A stretch of 64,000 bases of DNA from an uncultured Planctomycetales bacterium (GTDB lineage: Bacteria; Omnitrophota; Gorgyraeia; Zapsychrales; JANLHA01): NCBI GenBank assembly GCA_964489065.1, contig CAZAXH010000008.1, positions 130 through 64,129 of the forward strand, given 5' to 3'. The position numbers and the translations under genes were made by a program. Positions 1,450 to 44,475 of the stretch are shown here, piece by piece. How positions within the stretch are numbered: the stretch's first letter is position 1; each line of letters starts with the position of its first letter. Under the pieces are notes generated by a model. It was not told the DNA's origin and searched no databases. It saw nothing but the letters and a program-made list of their open reading frames with translations.

Positions 1450-3920
1450 TGATGATGCCATCCTGGGAAATCACCCATCCCGTTTTAATGTTCGCTTTTA
1501 TGATGTTTCTGGTTCTGTTTTCACCGGCTGTTTTTAAACGGATCCGGTTGCCAGGTGTCGTCGGGTTGATTGTGGCCGGGATCATGGCGGGGCCCCATGC
1601 TTTTGGGATTCTGAAATCAACGCAGTCTTTGCAGTTGTTTTCTTCCGTAGGGCTGATTTACATTATGTTTCTTGCCGGGCTGGAAATCAACCTGAACGAA
1701 TTTGCCCGGCAGAGAAAAAGCAGCGTTCTTTTCGGGGCCCTGACGTTTGGCGTTCCTATGCTGGCCGGGACTCTGGGCGCGAAATATTTTTTCCCTCTAT
1801 CCTGGCCCGCGGCCCTGCTTTTGGCCAGCATGTTCGCGTCACACACCCTGATTCCGTTTCCTATCACCGCGCGTTTGGGGATCAACAAGGAACGGTCTGT
1901 GGTGGCTACAGTGGGCGGCACAATCATCACCGACACTGCGGCGATGCTGGTTTTGGCCGTCATTGCGGAAAGCGCGGTAACAAGGTTGACGGCGGTCTTC
2001 TGGACGCGGCAAATTATTTTTCTCCTGGCGCTTATCTGGTTCGCGTTATGGCTCTTGCCAAGGATCGCGTACACGCTTTTTAAGATATTCGCCCCTGATG
2101 GGGAAAGCGAATTCTTGCTCACGCTGGCCCTGGTCTTCCTCACGTCTTATTTCGCGCATCTGGCCGGGGTGGAGGCCATCATCGGGGCTTTTTTCTCCGG
2201 GCTATCCTTAAGCCGGCTGATATCGGACTCCAGCCCCTTGAAGAACCGGCTGGAATTCGTGGGCAACACATTTTTTATCCCGTTTTTTCTCATATCGGTG
2301 GGCATGCTTGTTAATCTGCGGGTCATGTTGTCGGGCTGGGAGGTCTGGGGCATGGCGTTGTTTATGGTTGTTTCCGTGATTGTGTTCAAATATGCGGCGG
2401 CGTTTATTTTCGCAAAAACAGCCCGGTTTACGGATGATGAAATGAACCTGATCTTCGGGCTTAGCGTCAACCAGGCGGCGGCAACCCTGGCGACGGTGAT
2501 TGTCGGCTTCCGCCTTGGGATTTTTAATGAGGCCATTTTGAACGGGACGATTTTTATGATCTTTATCACCTGCTTGGTCGGCCCCTGGTTCACGGAAAAG
2601 TTTGGACGAAAGGTCGCTCGCTCGTTGCATTTAAAGGCCGCCGAACACAAGCCGGAGGGCGGGACCCGGGTCATGGTCGCCGTCAGCCGTGATGAGTCAG
2701 CAGAATTCTTGACGGATGTGGCTTTAAGTCTACGGATGCCAGGGTCAAAAGAAGCGGTTTTCCCTCTATATGTGATTCAGGATGGCCTTGACGTTGACCG
2801 CCGTGTGACCTTGGGCGAGAAGGTGTTAAGCGGGGTTGTCGCCAGGGTTGTGGCTGCCGATGTTCCTGTTTCGCCGGTCACCAGGATCGATGTTAATATC
2901 CCGGGTGGAATTCTGCGGGCGGTTAAGGAGTGCCGCGCGGACGCGCTGGTGCTGGGGGTCAGCCCGTCCAGGGACATAGATTTCATGGCCCGGCTGTTTG
3001 ATGTTTCGGATAAAGTGTGTGATGAGAGTCACCAGCTTCTATTCATATGCCATATGGCCTGCGCTTTAAATATCGGGAAAAATCTTTTTGTCCTTATTCC
3101 GCCGGTCCTGGAGCGCCAGGAGGGGTTCGCTCGCGCACTGGAAACCGTAAAGAATTTGGCTGCCGGCAATAAACTGGGGCTTCGCCTGATCGGTGTGCCG
3201 GACACTGTCCGGTTCCTGCAACAAAGTTTATCGCAGACCTTCACCAGCGGTTGTGAGGTCACTTTCCATGTCCTGGATCAATGGAACGAGCTTCCTGCTA
3301 GTGTCAAAAAAGCAGGATTGCAGGACTCTGATTCTATTTTATTGATGGCGGCAAGAAAAGGACGGCTGGCCTGGCAGCCATCCATGAAACGGCTCGCGCA
3401 TGCTTTGAGCCTGCAATTCCCGGCGAACAATGTCATCCGGGTTTATCCGAAGGACGCCGGCTTAGATGATCATAAAGAGGAGGGTTTAGAAAACGCAGGT
3501 ACCACGGCCCGCGTGTTATTAAGCCGTCCCGCTGTTCCCATTGACAGTATGAACCTGGAGGAAGGGATCCGGCGGCTTTTGGAATCACAGTTCCCGCCGG
3601 GCTCTTTAATCTTGTCGGAAGTTATGGATAAGCTATCTCCGCTCGCTCCGGTGGCGTTGTCGTCCGGTATCCTTCTTTTTCACACGCATTCGGCCTATGT
3701 TACGGAACCTGTCATACTGCTGGGCTGCGGACGGGAGGGGCTGGCTTGTTCTTTTCTGGAGGAGAAAACGCGCGCTTTTTTTATCCTGATCAGCCCCGAG
3801 GCCCAGACCAGTGTCCATCTGCAGGCGTTGACTCAAGTGGCCCGTATGGCGCGTGAGATCGAAAATGAACAATGGAATATGCCCGAAGTATTGACTAAAA
3901 AGGGAAAGGATTCATTATGA
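1449..3920 (+). CDS. Cation/proton antiporter (CPA/Kef-like membrane domain) fused to tandem USP-like domains and a C-terminal PTS EIIA(Ntr/Fru type 2)-like domain
   Basis: ~400-aa polytopic N-terminal domain typical of Na+(K+)/H+ exchangers. The C-terminus (GILLFHTHS ... FFILISPEAQTSVHLQALTQVARMA) aligns with PtsN motifs GIAIPHG and LLFALLVP..THLHTLSLVAKRLA. Confidence 0.7.
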   Translation: MMMPSWEITHPVLMFAFMMFLVLFSPAVFKRIRLPGVVGLIVAGIMAGPHAFGILKSTQSLQLFSSVGLIYIMFLAGLEINLNEFARQRKSSVLFGALTFGVPMLAGTLGAKYFFPLSWPAALLLASMFASHTLIPFPITARLGINKERSVVATVGGTIITDTAAMLVLAVIAESAVTRLTAVFWTRQIIFLLALIWFALWLLPRIAYTLFKIFAPDGESEFLLTLALVFLTSYFAHLAGVEAIIGAFFSGLSLSRLISDSSPLKNRLEFVGNTFFIPFFLISVGMLVNLRVMLSGWEVWGMALFMVVSVIVFKYAAAFIFAKTARFTDDEMNLIFGLSVNQAAATLATVIVGFRLGIFNEAILNGTIFMIFITCLVGPWFTEKFGRKVARSLHLKAAEHKPEGGTRVMVAVSRDESAEFLTDVALSLRMPGSKEAVFPLYVIQDGLDVDRRVTLGEKVLSGVVARVVAADVPVSPVTRIDVNIPGGILRAVKECRADALVLGVSPSRDIDFMARLFDVSDKVCDESHQLLFICHMACALNIGKNLFVLIPPVLERQEGFARALETVKNLAAGNKLGLRLIGVPDTVRFLQQSLSQTFTSGCEVTFHVLDQWNELPASVKKAGLQDSDSILLMAARKGRLAWQPSMKRLAHALSLQFPANNVIRVYPKDAGLDDHKEEGLENAGTTARVLLSRPAVPIDSMNLEEGIRRLLESQFPPGSLILSEVMDKLSPLAPVALSSGILLFHTHSAYVTEPVILLGCGREGLACSFLEEKTRAFFILISPEAQTSVHLQALTQVARMAREIENEQWNMPEVLTKKGKDSL

Positions 3921-3954
3921 ACTTATCAGCAAGTGAAGCGAGCCAGCGGATGAA
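3896..3954 (+). repeat. Direct repeat copy A (~58 bp) flanking the IS200-like insertion; duplicate of the antiporter-stop/moxR-start junction
   Basis: aaaagggaaaggattcattatgaacttatcagcaagtgaagcgagccagcggatgaag is nearly identical (about 5 mismatches, 1 indel) to 4861-4921. Confidence 0.8.
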
Positions 3955-4006
3955 GTGGAAGGGTGAGAGGAAGAAGGTGGAAGTGGAAGGGGACAGTCCC
4001 CCATGA
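3917..4006 (+). pseudogene. 29-codon remnant duplicate of the moxR 5' end (MNLSASEASQRMK...) created by the insertion
   Basis: First 13 codons match the moxR N-terminus MTLSASEASQRMK. The frame then runs through the left-end hairpin of the IS to a TGA at 4004-4006. Confidence 0.7.
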
Positions 4007-4860
4007 GGGACAGGGCATTTTTATGCAGTTGAATAATGTGGAGAAATAGGTATAATATTTACATTCCCCTAATGTTTTCCCCTGGTAAACAGAAAGGGGA
4101 TTTTTTATGCCCAGAATCGCCAGAAGAGAGATATTATATGATGGGTGTTATGCACACATCATATCACGGTCGATCCGTAAAATGAAGCTGTTCAGGGAAA
4201 AAGCAGATTTTCAAGAGTTGTATCAATTATTTGCGGAGACAAAACGGCAGGCTTGTTTTAAAATTTATCATTATTGCTTCATGCATACCCATTTTCATTT
4301 AGCCGTCAGTATCCCCGATATTAAAGAGTTCTCAAACGCACTCCGGGATGTCAAGAGCCAATATAGCCATAAATTTCATGCCAAATATCATTTGAGTGGG
4401 CCTATATGGAATGACCGATACCGAGGTTTATTGATCGAGAATGAGGCTTATTTGCAGGCATGCGGGACATATATTGAAAATAATCCGGTAAAGGCAGGTT
4501 TCGTGAAGAAAGCAAACGATTGGAAATTTAGTTCGTCACGGCATTATCAGGGGGAAGGGCCTGATTTATTGGTTGATAATTATGCTGATTCTGATAATCT
4601 GAGCAGAGCCGTTGAGATTGACTTCGAAGAAGAAGAATTTTTTGAGCACGGACATGTTATAGGGTCTGCTTTTTATCGTTGGCAATTATATGAGAAAAAG
4701 AAGAGAAGTTGACCTGTCCCCCAATGGGGACTGTCCCTTGTAAAAAGCCATTTTGTCATGAATTTTTTGGTTTAACCCGAAAATAGAAGGTAAAATAATG
4801 GAGATTTTTTAAATTAGGCCGTCTTTATTGATTTTCGCGGGATAGGAGGAGAAGGGGCCA
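3955..4860 (+). mobile_element. IS200/IS605-family (Y1 HUH transposase) insertion unit with imperfect palindromic subterminal hairpins; RAYT-like alternative
   Basis: Left-end hairpin GGGGACAGTCCCCCATGAGGGACAGGGC (3989-4016). Right-end hairpin gacctgtcccccaatggggactgtccc (4711-4737) is its near reverse complement. A single tnpA lies between them, and the unit is bounded by the 58-bp direct repeats. Confidence 0.7.
4107..4712 (+). CDS. tnpA: Y1 (HUH) tyrosine transposase, IS200-like / REP-associated tyrosine transposase-like
   Basis: HUH motif HTHFHLAV; catalytic Tyr region PIWNDRYRG ... YIENNPV matching the PF01797 pattern (W-x3-Y ... YIEN); 201 aa. Confidence 0.8.
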   Translation: MPRIARREILYDGCYAHIISRSIRKMKLFREKADFQELYQLFAETKRQACFKIYHYCFMHTHFHLAVSIPDIKEFSNALRDVKSQYSHKFHAKYHLSGPIWNDRYRGLLIENEAYLQACGTYIENNPVKAGFVKKANDWKFSSSRHYQGEGPDLLVDNYADSDNLSRAVEIDFEEEEFFEHGHVIGSAFYRWQLYEKKKRS

Positions 4861-4921
4861 TAAAAAAGGGAAAGGGTTGATTATGACTTTATCGGCAAGT
4901 GAAGCGAGCCAGCGGATGAAA
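4861..4921 (+). repeat. Direct repeat copy B (original junction upstream of intact moxR)
   Basis: See copy A; contains the genuine moxR start ATG at 4883. Confidence 0.8.
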
Positions 4922-5830
4922 GCCGTTTGTGATAACCTCGCGCAGGTGATCTGCGGTAAGGAAGACAAAATTGAGCTGGTGGTGCTGGCCCTGGTCGCTG
5001 GCGGGCATGTCCTGATTGAAGACATCCCCGGCGTGGGCAAAACCACCCTGGCCCGGGCGCTGGCCAAAACCGTGGATGGCAAGTTTAACCGCATCCAGTT
5101 CACACCCGACCTTTTGCCGACGGATATCACTGGCATCAATATCTTCAACCAGCATGACAGCAGTTTTTCCTTCAGCCCGGGGCCGCTGTTCGCGCATATC
5201 CTGCTGGGCGACGAAATCAACCGCGCCTCGCCGCGCACGCAGTCCGCGTTGCTGGAGGCGATGAGCGAGGAGCAGGTGACGGTTGACGGCGTCAGCCATA
5301 AACTGCCGTCGCCGTTCATCGTCCTGGCCACGCAAAACCCGATCGATTATCACGGCACTTACCCACTTCCCGAAGCCCAGCTCGACCGCTTTATGCTGCA
5401 GATCGACCTCGGCTACCCGCCCCAGGATAAAGAGCAGGCGCTTTTACTGAACCGCACGCGCCAGGACCCGGTGGACCAGATCGGTCCGATCCTGTCTCTG
5501 GAATCCCTCGAACAGTTAAGGGCTGTGGTGGACATGATCCGGCTGGAGCTTTCGGTCAGTGAGTATCTTTTGAAGATCGTGCTGGCGTCCCGGGCGCATC
5601 CCCAGTTAAGGCTCGGGGTTTCCACCCGGGGCACGCTGCTTTACGGCCGCATCGCCCGGGCCCGCGCGGTCATGCAGGGGCGCGACTACGTGATTCCCGA
5701 AGACGTGAAAGATCTGGCGATCCCGGTTTTGGCGCACCGCATTCTGCTGGACACCAAAGCGCAGTACGGCGGCGTCGCCCGGGCGAATATCGTTTCCGAA
5801 ATTCTATCATCCATTAAAGTGCCACGATAA
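4883..5830 (+). CDS. moxR: MoxR-family AAA+ ATPase
   Basis: Walker A GVGKTTLARALAK; Walker B ILLGDEINRASPRTQSALLEAM; conserved MoxR C-terminal region; ATG at 4883 preferred over the tracked TTG at 4877. Confidence 0.9.
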   Translation: MTLSASEASQRMKAVCDNLAQVICGKEDKIELVVLALVAGGHVLIEDIPGVGKTTLARALAKTVDGKFNRIQFTPDLLPTDITGINIFNQHDSSFSFSPGPLFAHILLGDEINRASPRTQSALLEAMSEEQVTVDGVSHKLPSPFIVLATQNPIDYHGTYPLPEAQLDRFMLQIDLGYPPQDKEQALLLNRTRQDPVDQIGPILSLESLEQLRAVVDMIRLELSVSEYLLKIVLASRAHPQLRLGVSTRGTLLYGRIARARAVMQGRDYVIPEDVKDLAIPVLAHRILLDTKAQYGGVARANIVSEILSSIKVPR

Positions 5831-7074
5831 TGCCGAAACGCGCATATTCATTTTTTATGCCGGCGGAGGACCACGCGTTCATCAAAAGGGCGGTGGTTTA
5901 CACGCGCATGTGGCTCACGGATGCCGGCCGCATCCTGTGCGGCATCGCCTTTGTCGGCATCATGGTTTCTTCACCGGGCCTGCACATCTCCGCTTATCTT
6001 CTGCCGAGTTTCATCATCACTCTGTTTACGACCGCGTTTATGTTCGCGTTCTTCAGCAAGCCCAGGGTCGAGGTGAAACGGCTTCTGGCGCCCAGCCCCT
6101 GTGCCGGCGAGTATCTGGTGTATCAGGTGATCGTCAAGAACACCGGCAGGCATCCTCTGCGGGATTTGAATATCTGCGAAGATGTGCTCCCTTACGGGCT
6201 TTATGACGCGCCGGACCATCCGGAATACAACAGCACGGTCCCCTGGCTGGAGCCGGGGGAAAGCGTGGTGGTCAAACTCATCATCCGCTGCAAGTTCCGG
6301 GGGTGCTACGAACTGCCGCGTGTTCTGGTGGGAACAAGTTTCCCGTCGGGGCTGCTCCGCTGGCCGGTCCGCACGGGGCACAGGGCCCGGCTGATCGTTT
6401 ATCCCAAGTTCATTTCCCAAACCGATTTCCTGGTGCCGTTCAAGCGGGTTTACCAGCCTGGCGGCATCGCGGTCAGTTCGCATGTGGGGGACTCGAATGA
6501 ATTTTTAAGCACCCGGGAATACCGGCGGGGCGACCGCCTGAAAGACATCCACTGGGCCTCGTTCGCGCGCACCGGCCGGCTGATCGTCAAAGAATATGTG
6601 GATGAATATTTTATCCGGGTGGGGCTTTTCCTGGATACGGAACTGAAACGCCGGCAGAGTCAGAAATTTTTCGAGCGCCGCATTTCGATCGTGGCCGGCA
6701 TTGCGGACGCGATCGCCAAGAAAGATTACATTATCGACCTTTTCGCGGCCGGGGATGTGCTGCATCATTTTCAGATGGGCCGGGCCCTGGCGCACCTGGA
6801 GAATCTGCTGGAACTCTTGGCTTGCATCGAGGAGGCGCGGTCCGTTAACTTAAACCGGCTTACGGTGAGCCTAGAGCCTTATCTGGATAAATTGTCCTCC
6901 ATGATCATTCTGCTGGGTGACTGGGATGAGGAGCGGGCCGCGTTGTGCCGGATGATCGAGAGCCGCGGCACGAACATCCGGGTGATTGTCGTGAGAGACC
7001 AGCCGCTGTCGCTTGCCCCGGACCGGGAATTGACGGTGGTGGCGTCCGGAGATAATGAAGGGACCATCCGATGA
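5830..7074 (+). CDS. DUF58 (vWA-like) protein, MoxR partner
   Basis: Signature REYRRGDRLKDIHWASFARTGRLIVKEY; start overlaps moxR stop (TAATG); typical MoxR-DUF58 operon. Confidence 0.85.
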   Translation: MPKRAYSFFMPAEDHAFIKRAVVYTRMWLTDAGRILCGIAFVGIMVSSPGLHISAYLLPSFIITLFTTAFMFAFFSKPRVEVKRLLAPSPCAGEYLVYQVIVKNTGRHPLRDLNICEDVLPYGLYDAPDHPEYNSTVPWLEPGESVVVKLIIRCKFRGCYELPRVLVGTSFPSGLLRWPVRTGHRARLIVYPKFISQTDFLVPFKRVYQPGGIAVSSHVGDSNEFLSTREYRRGDRLKDIHWASFARTGRLIVKEYVDEYFIRVGLFLDTELKRRQSQKFFERRISIVAGIADAIAKKDYIIDLFAAGDVLHHFQMGRALAHLENLLELLACIEEARSVNLNRLTVSLEPYLDKLSSMIILLGDWDEERAALCRMIESRGTNIRVIVVRDQPLSLAPDRELTVVASGDNEGTIR

Positions 7075-9083
7075 TGAGCAAACGCGAACAGACCGAGGTC
7101 TTTATTTCGCTATTTTTGGCCTGGCTCGTTTATGCGTTCTGCCAGGGGGATTTCCTGGCCCCGGGTCTGGCGTTATTGCTGGTTTTCCCTTCCTACCTGA
7201 AACAGGTGTTTGGCCGGCCGTCCCGGAAGTCAGCGGTGAACATGTCATGGCGTTCGCTTATCAGCATGGCGGTGATTTTCGGCGGCACCTGGCGGAATTT
7301 TTTCGAGCCGCCGGACACGGCAGTGTCGTTTATCCCGATCCTGATCCCGGCTTTGCAGACCGCATCCATTGTGGTGGCTGTCCTTGCGTGGTTCCGTTTT
7401 GATTATCAATGGCGGGCGTATTACCTTAAATTTTTACCCTGGTTGACGGTCGCCTTGTCCGTGAACGTGCCGTTTAACGCCTTGACCCAGCTGGTTTTTT
7501 GGCTGTTCTGCTTTGTCAGCGTCGGGTTCATGGTCGCGCAATTGTATATTCCTGTTTCCGACGCTTCCAGGGAAGCGCTTAAAAGGTCGAAGCACAAAAA
7601 TCCTCTGATGTACGCGTATCCGGTTTTCCTGGCGGTGATCGCCATGGGGCTTTTTTCCGTACTGGTTCAGAGCATCAAGCTCGGGGACGATATCTTCATG
7701 ACGCTGATTCAGGATTATGTGGGCCGGCGGCACCTTAATCTGTTCGATTCAACCTTGAGCCTGGCAGGGTCTGGCAACACCCGCAGCGACGTCCGGCCTA
7801 TCCTTGAAATTGACCGGGGCGGGGTGGACACCGCTTATCTTATCGGGCAGGTGTTTGAGAATTACGGCAACGGCGTGTGGAAGGCGCCGGTTGACGTGCC
7901 GATGGCGCCGCTTCCGTCCGGCTTGTCGTCAGATACAAAGACGATTGAGCTGGTGATGTATGAGTATCTCGCGGATGTGATCCCGGTCCCGCAGGGCACA
8001 TCCGCCATGACGAGTAAAGGCGCTTCCTATAAAAAAGATCTGAACGGCATCGTCTATAATGTTGATAAAAAAATACCCAAGGCGAAATTGCAGGTTAAAG
8101 GCCCGTATCCAGAGGCGGTTTGGCGCGAGGCGGAGCGCGGGCGCCTGACCGCGGTGCCGGATTTCCTGCGTATGCATTTAAAGCCCCGCGATGATGCTAT
8201 TGTGGGGAAGGAAACCGATCCCTGGCGGGTGGCGAAACGCCTTGAGCGGTTTTTTAAAGAGAATTTTCAGTATAACCTGTATGTGGATTTTATCGGCGAT
8301 GACCGCGGGCTTTTGTATATGCTGGATTACCGCAAGCCGGCGTACTGTTCGTATTTCGCTTCGGCCATGACTTTAATGCTGCGCGAGCGGGGCATCCCGG
8401 CGCGAATGGTGGCCGGGTTTATGGCCACCGAGGTGTCCCGTTTAAGCGAAGAGAAGTATGTGGTGCGGGGCCGGGACGCGCACGCCTGGGTTGAGGCGTT
8501 GCTGCCGGTGCCGGTTAAGTCATCCGGGGAACCCGGATCGGACTCGCCGGCAGAACCGGGGCCGGTGCTCCAGCGCTGGATCCGGTTCGACCCCACGCCG
8601 CCTGATTTCCGTTTGGCCGCGATCCAGGCCGACAGCCGGTTGAATAAAATCGCGGACTGGATATGGTGTTCGCAAAAACGTTTGAAGGCGTTTATCCTGG
8701 ATATCGAAACCAAGACTCTGGTCGCGGTCCTGTTCGTCGTGGTGATCGCCATAGCCCTGGAAGAAGTCCTTAAAAAAGTGTTGGCCCGGTATTTTAAGAA
8801 AGGCAAATCCTCCCGGGAAAAAGGGGAAGACGGCCTGATGCGGAACGCGAATCCGTTTTTACCGGTGTACCGGCACTTTGAGCTGTTTCTTAAGAAAAAG
8901 CTGGATGTGGAGCGCCTGGAAACGGAAACGGATGCCGAGCTTATTCAAAGGCTGCGCGCCCTGCCGGGCGTCCCGGCTCGGCTGATCGGCGATATCGAAC
9001 ATTTTTTGGAGGAGTATCATCACGCCCGTTTTGGCGATAAGAAGGTGGAAGGGCTGGAGAATATTGTTAAACTTTTAAATTGA
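7071..9083 (+). CDS. Transglutaminase-like domain membrane protein (third gene of MoxR/DUF58/TGase operon)
   Basis: N-terminal TM helices; transglutaminase core Cys-His-Asp context (AYCSYFASAMTLMLRERGIPARMVAGF ... GRDAHAWVEA); overlaps upstream stop. Confidence 0.8.
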   Translation: MMSKREQTEVFISLFLAWLVYAFCQGDFLAPGLALLLVFPSYLKQVFGRPSRKSAVNMSWRSLISMAVIFGGTWRNFFEPPDTAVSFIPILIPALQTASIVVAVLAWFRFDYQWRAYYLKFLPWLTVALSVNVPFNALTQLVFWLFCFVSVGFMVAQLYIPVSDASREALKRSKHKNPLMYAYPVFLAVIAMGLFSVLVQSIKLGDDIFMTLIQDYVGRRHLNLFDSTLSLAGSGNTRSDVRPILEIDRGGVDTAYLIGQVFENYGNGVWKAPVDVPMAPLPSGLSSDTKTIELVMYEYLADVIPVPQGTSAMTSKGASYKKDLNGIVYNVDKKIPKAKLQVKGPYPEAVWREAERGRLTAVPDFLRMHLKPRDDAIVGKETDPWRVAKRLERFFKENFQYNLYVDFIGDDRGLLYMLDYRKPAYCSYFASAMTLMLRERGIPARMVAGFMATEVSRLSEEKYVVRGRDAHAWVEALLPVPVKSSGEPGSDSPAEPGPVLQRWIRFDPTPPDFRLAAIQADSRLNKIADWIWCSQKRLKAFILDIETKTLVAVLFVVVIAIALEEVLKKVLARYFKKGKSSREKGEDGLMRNANPFLPVYRHFELFLKKKLDVERLETETDAELIQRLRALPGVPARLIGDIEHFLEEYHHARFGDKKVEGLENIVKLLN

Positions 9084-42747: not shown

Positions 42748-44475
42748 TTATGTGCTGCCGGTTGGCTTCTCGAGTTTTGATTTCGGGGGTTCGATAATCA
42801 TATGATATGCTGATTTCCCCGCCGGGACCATGGGGAAGACGTTGTCTTCCTTGACGACTTCGCAATGCACCAGGGCCGGACCGTGGTGTTTAAGGGCCGC
42901 TTTCAGCACGCTTTCCGCTTCTTCAACTTTCCCGATGTGGTATCCTTTGACCTGGTAGGCCTCCGCCAGTTTGACAAAGTCGGGATTCCCCTCCAGATTC
43001 ACCCCGGAGAGGCGGTTGTCAAAAAACAGCTCCTGCCATTGCCGGACCATGCCGAGATATTTGTTGTCAATAATGATAATTTTCACCGGGAGTTTATGGA
43101 CGAACGCCGTGGCCAGTTCATAAAGCGTCATTTGAAAACCGCCGTCCCCGACAATGGCGACCACCAGTTCTTTGGGCCGCCCGAACTGGGCGCCGATGGC
43201 GGCCGGGAACCCGTAGCCCATTGTCCCGGCCCCGCCGGATGAGAGCCATTGGTCGCTCCGGTCGCAGCGATAAAATTGCGCGGCCCACATCTGATGCTGG
43301 CCGACATCCGTCACCACCGTGGCTGTCCCTTTGGTCAATCGGTAAACCGTATCAATGACATATTGAGCTGTCAGGCCGGCGTTGATGTCATAATGGAGCG
43401 GGAATTCATTTTTGTAATATTCCACTTCCTTGAGCCACTCGGCCGTGTCCAGTTTATCCACGTATTTGATCAGTTCTTTTAAAATAAGACGGGCGTCCCC
43501 GATCAAGGCGCTGTCCGGCTTAATCACTTTCCCGATTTCAGCCGGATCAATATCGATGTGCAGCTTTTTGGCGCCGATGCAGAATTCTTCAGTGTTTCCG
43601 TTGATCCGGTCGTCAAACCGCGACCCGATGGAACAAATAAGGTCGCAGTTGATAAGCGCTTTGTTGGAATACGCCGTGCCGTGCATCCCGATCATCCCGA
43701 GGGAAAGAGCGTGGGTTTCCGGGAAGGCCCCTTTCCCCAAGAGGGTGCAGATCACCGGGGCCTGGAGTTTTTCTGCCAGGGCCCGCACTTCCTGATCCGC
43801 TTTGGCAATGACGGCTCCGTGCCCCACCAGCAGGAGCGGCCGTTTAGCGCCTTTAAACATCCTGGCCATGGTTTTGATGCCTTTGATATTGACTTTGGCG
43901 GCGACGGAGTATCCGGGCAAGTCCATGGGAGGATTGATTGTTTGGGCCGTAAACGGGGCGGAGGAAATATCTTTGGGCAGATCAATCAAGACCGGGCCGG
44001 GCCGGTTGGTGTTCGCGATAAAAAACGCTTCTTTGATGATCCGCGGGATATCATTTGCGTCATGAACCAGATAGCTGTGCTTGACGACCGGCATAGTGAT
44101 GCCGACGATATCCGCTTCCTGGAACGCGTCTTTCCCCAGCATGGCCCGGATCGTCTGTCCCGTCAGGACAATGACCGGGACAGAATCCATCATGGCGGTC
44201 ATAATGCCGGTCACAGCGTTGGTGGCTCCGGGGCCGCTGGTTACGCAAACGACGCCGGGCCTTCCGGTCACGCGAGCGTAACCGTCGGCCATATGCACCG
44301 CCGCTTGTTCGTGCCGCACCAGGATCAGTTTAATTTTAGAGTTGACCAACGCGTCAAAAATGGGGATAACGGCGCCGCCGGAAAGCCCAAAAATATATTC
44401 AACCCCTTGTGCTTCCAGACATTTGATCAGAACCTCTGCGCCATTCAGCTGTTCTTTGGTGGTTTTCTGGGCCAT
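42748..44475 (-). CDS. ilvB: Acetolactate synthase large subunit
   Basis: 575 aa ThDP enzyme; motifs [11 protein letters not shown], and ThDP-binding GDGGFQM ... N. Confidence 0.92.

Follow-up and report, generated by a model that had tools for sequence, protein, structure and literature searches.

Between the genes for a cation:proton antiporter and a MoxR-family ATPase, a 64-kb stretch of DNA from a Candidatus Omnitrophota bacterium (names as given by the source records) carries a gene for a tyrosine nuclease of the Y1 HUH superfamily, enclosed by inverted hairpins and, farther out, by two near-identical direct copies of a 58-bp sequence. This whole stretch (G+C 51.2%) is called the window, or W, below. 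Such an arrangement raises the question of whether a mobile element duplicated its target on insertion, as an earlier note on the same DNA had proposed for an IS200/IS605-type unit at the antiporter/moxR junction, or whether the gene and the direct repeat have separate origins. The second answer is favoured here, with a probability of about 0.7: the gene and its hairpins would form a compact cassette of the REPtron or TIRtron type, coding for a RAYT (a tyrosine transposase associated with repetitive extragenic palindromes, REPs) and long resident at this site, and the 58-bp repeat would be a secondary, lineage-specific copy of the moxR start instead of a target-site duplication.

All the sequence features that the earlier note described at this locus are indeed there, at the coordinates given. 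The two 58-nt copies (A on the antiporter side, B on the moxR side) are identical at 53 positions (91%); the 28-nt inverted arms that bracket the gene (3990-4017 and 4710-4737) are 86% complementary; the reading frame of 201 codons is intact and contains HTHFH and YIENNP, with Y1_Tnp as its sole Pfam domain; and a 29-codon frame that begins like MoxR ends in the left hairpin. The part of that overall reading which did not stand is the IS200/IS605 label, together with the link between repeat and insertion. Its fallback, a domesticated element resembling RAYTs, describes the unit better, and the profile comparison that it had suggested comes out on the RAYT side. The protein scores 75.9 bits against the NCBIfam model REP_Tyr_transpos (E = 2.8e-21; curated cut-off, 80), which all 24 homologues tested match as well (E <= 1e-3). 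The NCBIfam IS200 model NF033573 gives 21 bits against a cut-off of 55 and is matched weakly by six of the 24 family members. By sequence, just one protein of solved structure is related, E. coli TnpA_REP (PDB 4ER8, 8e-10), in which the HUH histidines (H62-F-H64) and the catalytic tyrosine (Y122, in YIENNP) align; a sequence search of solved structures returned neither IS608 nor ISDra2 TnpA, even at E = 1. T61, H62, H64, W101, R104, Y122, N126 and P127 are invariant in the 24 homologues, so that the tyrosine motif is YxxxNP throughout (Y122-I-E-N-N126-P127) and not YxxxQ. The former is the signature of class 2, the TnpA_REP-like proteins, and IS200 (TnpA_IS200, subclass 1.1) has YxxxQ in the form Y[IV]ENQ (Quentin et al., 2018, PMC6006769).

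Like the IS200/IS605 elements (IS200, IS608 and ISDra2), the W unit has a nuclease of the HUH/Y1 superfamily (Pfam Y1_Tnp) and subterminal hairpins, and no target-site duplication is expected of either. Unlike them, it carries YxxxNP, its hairpins are inverted and not direct, no tnpB adjoins the gene, and no multiple near-identical copies were found: the 64-kb window holds no second copy of the nuclease gene, and the exact protein occurs at one locus only across the collection searched, where the nearest homologue is 67% identical. By the IS200-model score, the motif, the single copy in 64 kb and the absent tnpB, the unit fails as a member of the IS200/IS605 group. A scan of viral contigs with the family profile gave just one 26-residue fragment.

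As far as its sequence tells, the protein belongs to the RAYT (TnpA_REP, class 2) branch and is closest to the TIRYT type. It resembles the E. coli REPtron (TnpA_REP, 4ER8) in the aligned HUH and tyrosine residues, in YxxxNP, in being encoded by a single-copy gene and in its inverted palindromic repeats. It differs from the REPtron in that W has neither a GT[AG]G foot nor abundant dispersed REPs (none in 64 kb), and in having about 60 extra C-terminal residues (140-201), which are conserved among the W protein's own family. In TIRtrons, which encode the TIRYTs, a RAYT-like HUH/Tyr gene is likewise flanked by terminal inverted repeats and not by GTAG REPs, the 3′ repeat overlaps the end of the gene, and the repeats are single, dimeric or members of small families in some genomes. 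The core of the W repeats fits GGGGWSAS, the consensus of TIRYT/TIRtron inverted repeats (Di Nocera et al., 2013, PMC3733652). Later work identified TIRYTs for the most part with subclass 2.1, which has a median length of 238 aa, a C-terminal helix-turn-helix (HTH) domain and the motifs NH[VYF]H and Y[IV](E/H)LNP (PMC6006769). With 201 aa, THFH, WN, YIENNP and no HTH domain, the W protein does not fit this subclass and is therefore filed as RAYT-family and TIRYT-like, without a subclass. Two further differences from the published TIRYT surveys are that Omnitrophota lie outside them and that a secondary 58-bp duplication stands near the W cassette. If it acts like E. coli TnpA_REP and IS608 TnpA, the protein would recognise the repeats when they fold in single-stranded DNA, and would cut and rejoin beside them by means of Tyr122 and a metal site at His62/His64.

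The layout of the cassette agrees with such an assignment. The unit (3987-4739, about 753 bp) is bounded by inverted repeats of about 30 nt with the core GGGGACAGTCCCC-N5-GGGACAGG; GGGGACAG, the part that fits GGGGWSAS, lies at the outer part of both arms. The 25-mer core of the arms has only these two sites in the window (0 expected), and relaxed repeat patterns found no further copy there. Taken alone, the right arm folds into a moderate hairpin (-7.6 kcal/mol, z = -2.9). Between the left arm and the leader of the gene stands the best promoter-like site in 3700-5100, TTGAAT-16-TATAAT. The leader stem-loop likely holds the Shine-Dalgarno sequence in its 3′ arm, and it probably serves to stop transcription that reads in from outside and to mask the site of ribosome binding. 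Masking of this kind by a leader hairpin recalls the regulation of IS200.

Homologues of the nuclease that are 63-67% identical to the W protein were found at three loci in unrelated contexts: between a DUF5674 gene and a DEAD helicase gene (L015), between the genes for two giant surface proteins (L016), and upstream of a porin gene (L017). Inverted repeats with the shared core (R)AAGGGGACAG-KCCCC-N4-6-GGGACAGG stand on both sides of each gene. At three of the four loci (W, L016 and L017) the right arm reaches the stop codon or runs into it, as TGACCTGTCCC; at L015 the arm begins 6 nt beyond the end of the gene as called. The leader architecture recurs with different inner-stem sequences in L016 (4959-5000) and L017 (244-287); L015 (~1520-1540) keeps only the motif GAAAGGGGAUUUUUUAUG, and its fold is not significant. 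All four loci carry AAAGGGG(A/U)UUUUUUAUG just 5′ of the AUG, which closes the stem-loop in W, L016 and L017. No long direct repeat brackets any of the three other cassettes. The same core, in inverted copies, also encloses a far more distant homologue (27% identical) at L067 in Planctomycetota.

The 58-bp repeat lies outside the unit. Copy A is 32 nt outside the left arm and copy B 123 nt outside the right arm, and the stretches in between are host DNA, homologous to relatives that lack copy A. Since the copies do not abut the unit, they are not a target-site duplication. Four lineages could be compared at this locus: W itself; R91, the sister lineage, with an antiporter 91% identical (eight contigs, including L004, among which the intergenic stretch is identical); R80, with an antiporter 80% identical to that of W (loci including L012 and L221); and L223, a fourth lineage at the moxR locus. 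Copy A occurs only in W and is absent in R91, R80, L221 and L223. The earlier proposal that an insertion at the antiporter/moxR junction made the repeat is thus not supported, in view of the offsets of 32 and 123 nt, the presence in R91 of a cassette remnant without copy A, and the lack of long flanking direct repeats at the three other cassettes.

Copy A has a history of its own. The last 26 nt of the repeat are identical between the copies and have only these two occurrences in 64 kb (0 expected). Elsewhere copy A bears five private changes, unseen in any functional moxR start, two of which remove an in-frame TGA that copy B would give to the antiporter frame. GTGAAGCGAGCC is common to copies A and B, and R91, L221 and L223 have GTGAGGCGAGTC at this place, which speaks for a B-like source of copy A. 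On its left side, W 3873-3896 is identical to the R80 antiporter tail at 12 of 24 nt (anchored, ungapped; p = 0.018), and the identity falls to 5 of 24 exactly where copy A starts, which indicates that copy A was joined to an existing antiporter tail. This tail, not present in R91, is probably ancestral on the strength of the R80 comparison. The final eight codons of the W antiporter and its stop (3897-3920) come from copy A; the R91 orthologue has 811 aa and terminates in ENEQVRE. The fossil open reading frame (ORF) left by copy A shares an ATGA with the antiporter, its start overlapping the antiporter stop, and is closed by a TGA that lies in the left hairpin loop. Divergence between A and B is 8.6%, approximately the per-lineage neutral divergence since W and R91 split (a shared non-coding stretch is 81% identical), so that the duplication is old.

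An empty site, that is, a single 58-mer at an antiporter/moxR overlap, was expected in relatives by the earlier note and is shown by none: it was sought through antiporter orthologues (P0121-P0124) and MoxR members (P0254, P0256 and P0258). A disrupted start suspected in the 304-aa MoxR of P0256/P0261 proved to be the choice of the gene caller only. Antiporter homologues 63-65% identical are followed by genes other than moxR, and no antiporter gene lies upstream of the genes for MoxR homologues that are 73-75% identical. As the adjacency is broken in these distant relatives, there was never a demonstrable single junction to duplicate. Among close relatives, a metagenome scan with MoxR returned only the R91 and R80 types.

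The comparison of these types dates the cassette. The order in R91 is antiporter, purine run, left arm (GGGGCCGGTCCCCATTTAGGGACCGGGC), a homologue of W 4018-4062 (about 50 bp, with the TTGAAT box), the equivalent of W 4791-4826, and the moxR start; W 3873-3962, ~4063-4790 and 4827-4861 are missing, so that the nuclease gene is gone, as are the right repeat and some of the sequence upstream of moxR. In R80 the antiporter is followed by an MBOAT gene and a gene for 409 aa; beyond these, from W 4730 (inside the outer end of the right arm) into moxR, the sequence is 93% identical to that of W, with 4730-4882 contiguous in both. W and R80 share 4738-4862 contiguous with moxR, and of the right repeat they have no more than the outermost 8-10 nt in common; no remnant of the left repeat or of the RAYT 3′ end was found in R80, where local alignment did no better than with shuffled sequence (p = 0.12-0.17). 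Because W and R80 are contiguous here and part of the cassette interior is kept in R91, the R91 state arose by deletion, and the cassette is older than the split of W and R91. A plausible microhomology for the deletion that removed the gene from R91 is AAATAG..TAWAAT. In L223 the same position holds a HipBA toxin-antitoxin pair together with an outer membrane protein (OMP) gene. There are thus four architectures upstream of moxR: antiporter with cassette, antiporter with solo repeat, antiporter with MBOAT and the 409-aa gene, and OMP with HipBA. The stretch from ~4790 on is kept in all four (five-way alignment). On this comparative evidence the cassette is an old resident of a variable region upstream of moxR and not a fresh insertion.

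Further, shared variants mark the locus as a mosaic made by recombination. Of the informative sites inside moxR, 66 group W with R80 and 31 group it with R91; downstream of moxR the corresponding numbers are 139 and 223 (Fisher p = 2.8e-7). From 4730 to ~5780, covering the upstream region and moxR, W is R80-like, and the antiporter and the DUF58/transglutaminase genes are R91-like (window 4730-9083 compared with L004 and L141).

Table 1. Features of the antiporter-moxR interval of the window, with the evidence for each.
Feature	Position	Strand	Evidence
CPA2-type cation:proton antiporter, C-terminal PTS_EIIA_2 domain, 823 aa	1449..3920	+	Pfam Na_H_Exchanger 1.7e-56, PTS_EIIA_2
Antiporter tail, 24 nt (WNMPEVLT)	3873..3896	+	anchored comparison with R80 tail
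Copy A: diverged moxR ribosome-binding site and codons 1-13	3897..3954	+	53/58 identical to copy B
29-codon fossil ORF (MNLSASEASQRMK and 16 unrelated codons)	3917..4006	+	start overlaps antiporter stop (ATGA)
Purine-rich "stutter" (GTGGAAGG GTGAGAGG AAGAAG GTGGAAG ...)	3955..3986	+	resembles outer end of left inverted repeat
Left terminal inverted repeat/REP-like hairpin (AAGGGGACAGTCCCCCATGAGGGACAGGGCA)	3987..4017	+	inverted-repeat pair; core GGGGACAG
Sigma-70-like promoter TTGAAT-16-TATAAT, within the unit, facing the nuclease gene	4029..4056	+	consensus match only, 10/12 positions
Leader stem-loop (UCCCCU...AGGGGA), then U6, AUG	4065..4106	+	RNA fold -14.6 kcal/mol, z = -2.1
RAYT/TIRYT-type Y1 HUH nuclease gene, 201 aa	4107..4712	+	Pfam Y1_Tnp 2e-13; NCBIfam REP_Tyr_transpos; PDB 4ER8
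Right terminal inverted repeat (TGACCTGTCCCCCAATGGGGACTGTCCCTT)	4710..4739	+	overlaps stop codon
Native moxR upstream region	4740..4862	+	five-way alignment; 93% identical to R80 from 4730 onward
Copy B: functional moxR ribosome-binding site and codons 1-13	4863..4920	+	present in every lineage (alignment)
MoxR-family AAA+ ATPase, 315 aa	4883..5830	+	Pfam AAA_3 7e-64, AAA_lid_2

How, then, might copy A have arisen? In the favoured explanation, a copy of the moxR ribosome-binding site with the first 13 codons would have been placed after codon 815 of the antiporter and would then have diverged by five substitutions, giving the antiporter a new C-terminus and stop and leaving the 29-codon ORF as a fossil. 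Illegitimate recombination at the level of microhomology, or template switching, in a recombination-prone spot is the most likely route, either as a templated insertion in one step or as a tandem duplication of ~966 bp from which most of the first copy was later deleted. Such an illegitimate event in situ ranks before the re-acquisition of the cassette from another lineage, and this in turn before a repair scar left by the nuclease; the duplication is probably incidental to the cassette beside it. Chromosomal rearrangements associated with REPs have reportedly been described (Shyamala et al., 1990), and so, reportedly, has illegitimate recombination facilitated by homology (de Vries and Wackernagel, 2002). 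The W locus is like these systems in having a short duplication and join beside palindromic repeats within a mosaic, and unlike them in that its join points lie outside the palindromes and no intermediate was observed.

The alternative that survives best, though it is distinctly less probable than the in-situ event and on balance unlikely, is that the cassette was re-acquired by homology-facilitated illegitimate recombination, copy A being the moxR start of the recipient and copy B that of the donor. Homology-mediated capture, which the earlier note had offered as one option, lives on in this alternative. In an ancestor of W, the whole stretch from the antiporter tail to the ribosome-binding site of moxR would have been deleted, which would leave an antiporter-ATGA-moxR junction (now copy A); DNA from a related lineage with stutter, cassette, upstream region and the 5′ half of moxR would then have been recombined in, by a homologous crossover within or after moxR on the right and an illegitimate join after recipient codon 13 on the left. 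The switch of ancestry across the element, from an R91-like antiporter through R80-like sequence (4730 to ~5780) and back to R91-like sequence (p = 2.8e-7), would follow from such an exchange, and the 8.6% divergence of the copies resembles that between lineages. Further, functional alleles differ from one another by coding changes like those of copy A (at residue 2, variable among lineages, and a synonymous change from TCG to TCA), and the 26-nt identical block beside the join could be a conversion tract. However, this course takes two events and an unsampled donor that combines the cassette with an R80-like moxR, and the known R80-type loci have no cassette; the derived-looking variants of copy A match copy B and not R91; and no MoxR allele starting MNLSAS is present among 14 cluster members. 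It also predicts an allele ...TATTGACTAAAAAGGGAAAGGATTCATTATGAACTTATCAGCAAGTGAAGCGAGCCAGCGGATGAAAGCCG, in which the deletion of tail to moxR would read as copy A continued by AGCCGTTTG, and no such cassette-less allele was found in the relatives searched.

Quite improbable is a second alternative, in which the Y1 nuclease would have nicked the outer foot of the left repeat and repair would have copied 58 nt from the moxR start ~900 bp downstream. The right end of copy A does adjoin GTGGAAGG, which copies the outer limit of the left repeat (GTGGAAGGGGACAG), and the incomplete, stuttered repeat ends that precede this repeat in W, R91 and the unrelated L015 suggest recurrent local mis-repair there. 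Against this, L016, L017 and L031 are free of stutters, the purine-rich similarity is of low complexity and could be chance, and templated insertions of this sort are not an established outcome of Y1 nuclease action. If it were true, a domesticated single-copy enzyme of the RAYT type would make templated local duplications and thereby rewire neighbouring genes, here by giving the antiporter a new C-terminus and stop and by creating a translationally coupled mini-ORF. As to the stutters themselves, they stand just upstream of the left repeat as (GTGGAAG)-like units in W and R91 (L004:7425-7450), where all of the W stutter except its first 8 nt is shared, and as (GAGAACG)n in L015:1276-1354; none was seen at L016, L017 or L031.

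That an IS200/IS605-type element entered a pre-existing antiporter-stop/moxR-start junction through a 58-bp staggered break that was then filled in is very improbable. It would account for a direct repeat that brackets the gene and for the resemblance of copy A to an operon junction with an ATGA stop/start overlap. Yet the protein is of the RAYT class, the copies stand 32 and 123 nt away from the inverted repeats across host DNA shared with relatives lacking copy A, R91 has a cassette remnant and no copy A, the predicted empty site appears in no relative, the 8.6% divergence of the copies speaks against a single recent fill-in, and the cassettes at L015, L016 and L017 have no such repeats. An assembly artefact, in which mis-joined reads would have duplicated the junction of what is a metagenome-assembled genome, has next to no probability, for three independent Logan assemblies from different runs agree on the structure (L001 identical, L002 with two single-nucleotide polymorphisms in 1.6 kb, L003 covering 3853-4830) and the copies differ at five positions, so that they are not collapsed or duplicated reads of one locus.

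Several points weigh against the reading of an old RAYT cassette beside a secondary duplication. As for the protein, its score on the RAYT model is slightly under the curated cut-off, and its motifs, length and missing HTH domain depart from subclass 2.1 as described above. As for the repeats, the left arm alone folds weakly (-4.1 kcal/mol, not better than shuffled sequence), the canonical GT[AG]G REP foot is absent at both arms (GGAAGGGGACAG..., no GTAG or GTGG adjoining the stem), and no extra copy of the repeat occurs in 64 kb to speak for REP dispersal in this genome. The G+C content of the cassette, 40.6% against 51.2% for the window, suggests a foreign origin at some point. As for the duplication, the borders of copy A show no convincing microhomology, and mechanism and polarity are thus only inferred: copy A was either gained by W after the split or lost by R91 in a 90-bp deletion. 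Finally, all five differences between A and B lie in the first 32 nt (p about 0.05), which could reflect a recombination or gene-conversion boundary.

If the favoured explanation holds, the RAYT/TIRYT TIRtron architecture, consisting of the gene, inverted GGGGWSAS repeats and a conserved leader hairpin, extends to Omnitrophota, and one locus offers a three-way natural experiment with the intact cassette, a solo-repeat remnant, and other genes in its place. The comparison shows how a cassette decays, and the hairpins left over may be put to other use, for example as terminator-like structures. There is a warning for annotation as well, namely that relatives should be compared before a direct repeat that encloses a Y1 gene is called a target-site duplication. 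The case is otherwise largely ordinary; it opens no new mechanism and settles no open question.

The solo left repeat of R91 (L004:7451-7478, equivalent to window 3989-4017) lies ~30 nt past the antiporter stop and forms a perfect 8-bp GC-rich stem (CCGGTCCC/GGGACCGG; -11.8 kcal/mol, z = -3.5) followed by GCATTTTTAT. Relative to W, an A.A mismatch has become G:C, and both arms are changed. From its form, this remnant looks like a repeat reused as an intrinsic terminator. Around the same locus, moxR opens a moxR-DUF58-transglutaminase cluster, and the side running from moxR through DUF58 and transglutaminase to aconitase is conserved, the upstream side being a variable hot spot. A gene for a B12-binding radical-SAM protein precedes the antiporter in W and R80; in L004 (4794-4998) it is a frameshifted remnant of its last ~67 codons, another deletion in R91. 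Just past the antiporter stop, L012 (4213-4290) and L221 (2971-3085) have unrelated segments of ~80-115 bp in loci that are otherwise 95-98% identical.

Repeats of related sequence are widespread outside the family cassettes. A scan of GTDB, taking one genome per species and the pattern GGGACAGTCCCC-N3-7-GGGACAG, gave at least 120 loci in many phyla, with at least 16 Omnitrophota genomes among them. Among the matches listed, 136 of 144 are longer palindromes of the form GGGACAGTCCCC-loop-GGGGACAGTCCC, eight are of the W type, and a homologue of the nuclease lies within 8 kb at three loci. Abundant REPINs are found only in RAYT groups 2 and 3 (Bertels et al., 2017, PMC5581495), and a repeat-poor RAYT is therefore not unusual. 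In another Omnitrophota genome (L031:985-1065), a left and a right repeat stand in inverted orientation 23 nt apart without a gene, either as a REPIN-like doublet or as an internally deleted cassette.

The longer palindromes have a 12-bp stem with a central A.A mismatch and occur in phyla including Actinomycetota, Planctomycetota, Myxococcota, Omnitrophota and Acidobacteriota. Several copies are present in some of the genomes, with almost no Y1 gene within 8 kb among the matches listed, and L121 has eight in tandem with an 18-nt period. In the window, GGGACAG is about threefold over-represented (18 observed, 5.7 expected); an inverted pair that contains it at 44155-44183 (CTGTCCCG...CGGGACAG, 8-nt arms, 13-nt spacer) is probably due to chance. 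At L053, direct repeats of ~110 nt with the W-type core (1330-1450 and 2320-2440, ~990 bp apart) bracket a small gene on the opposite strand, which may be a different cargo on the same kind of ends.

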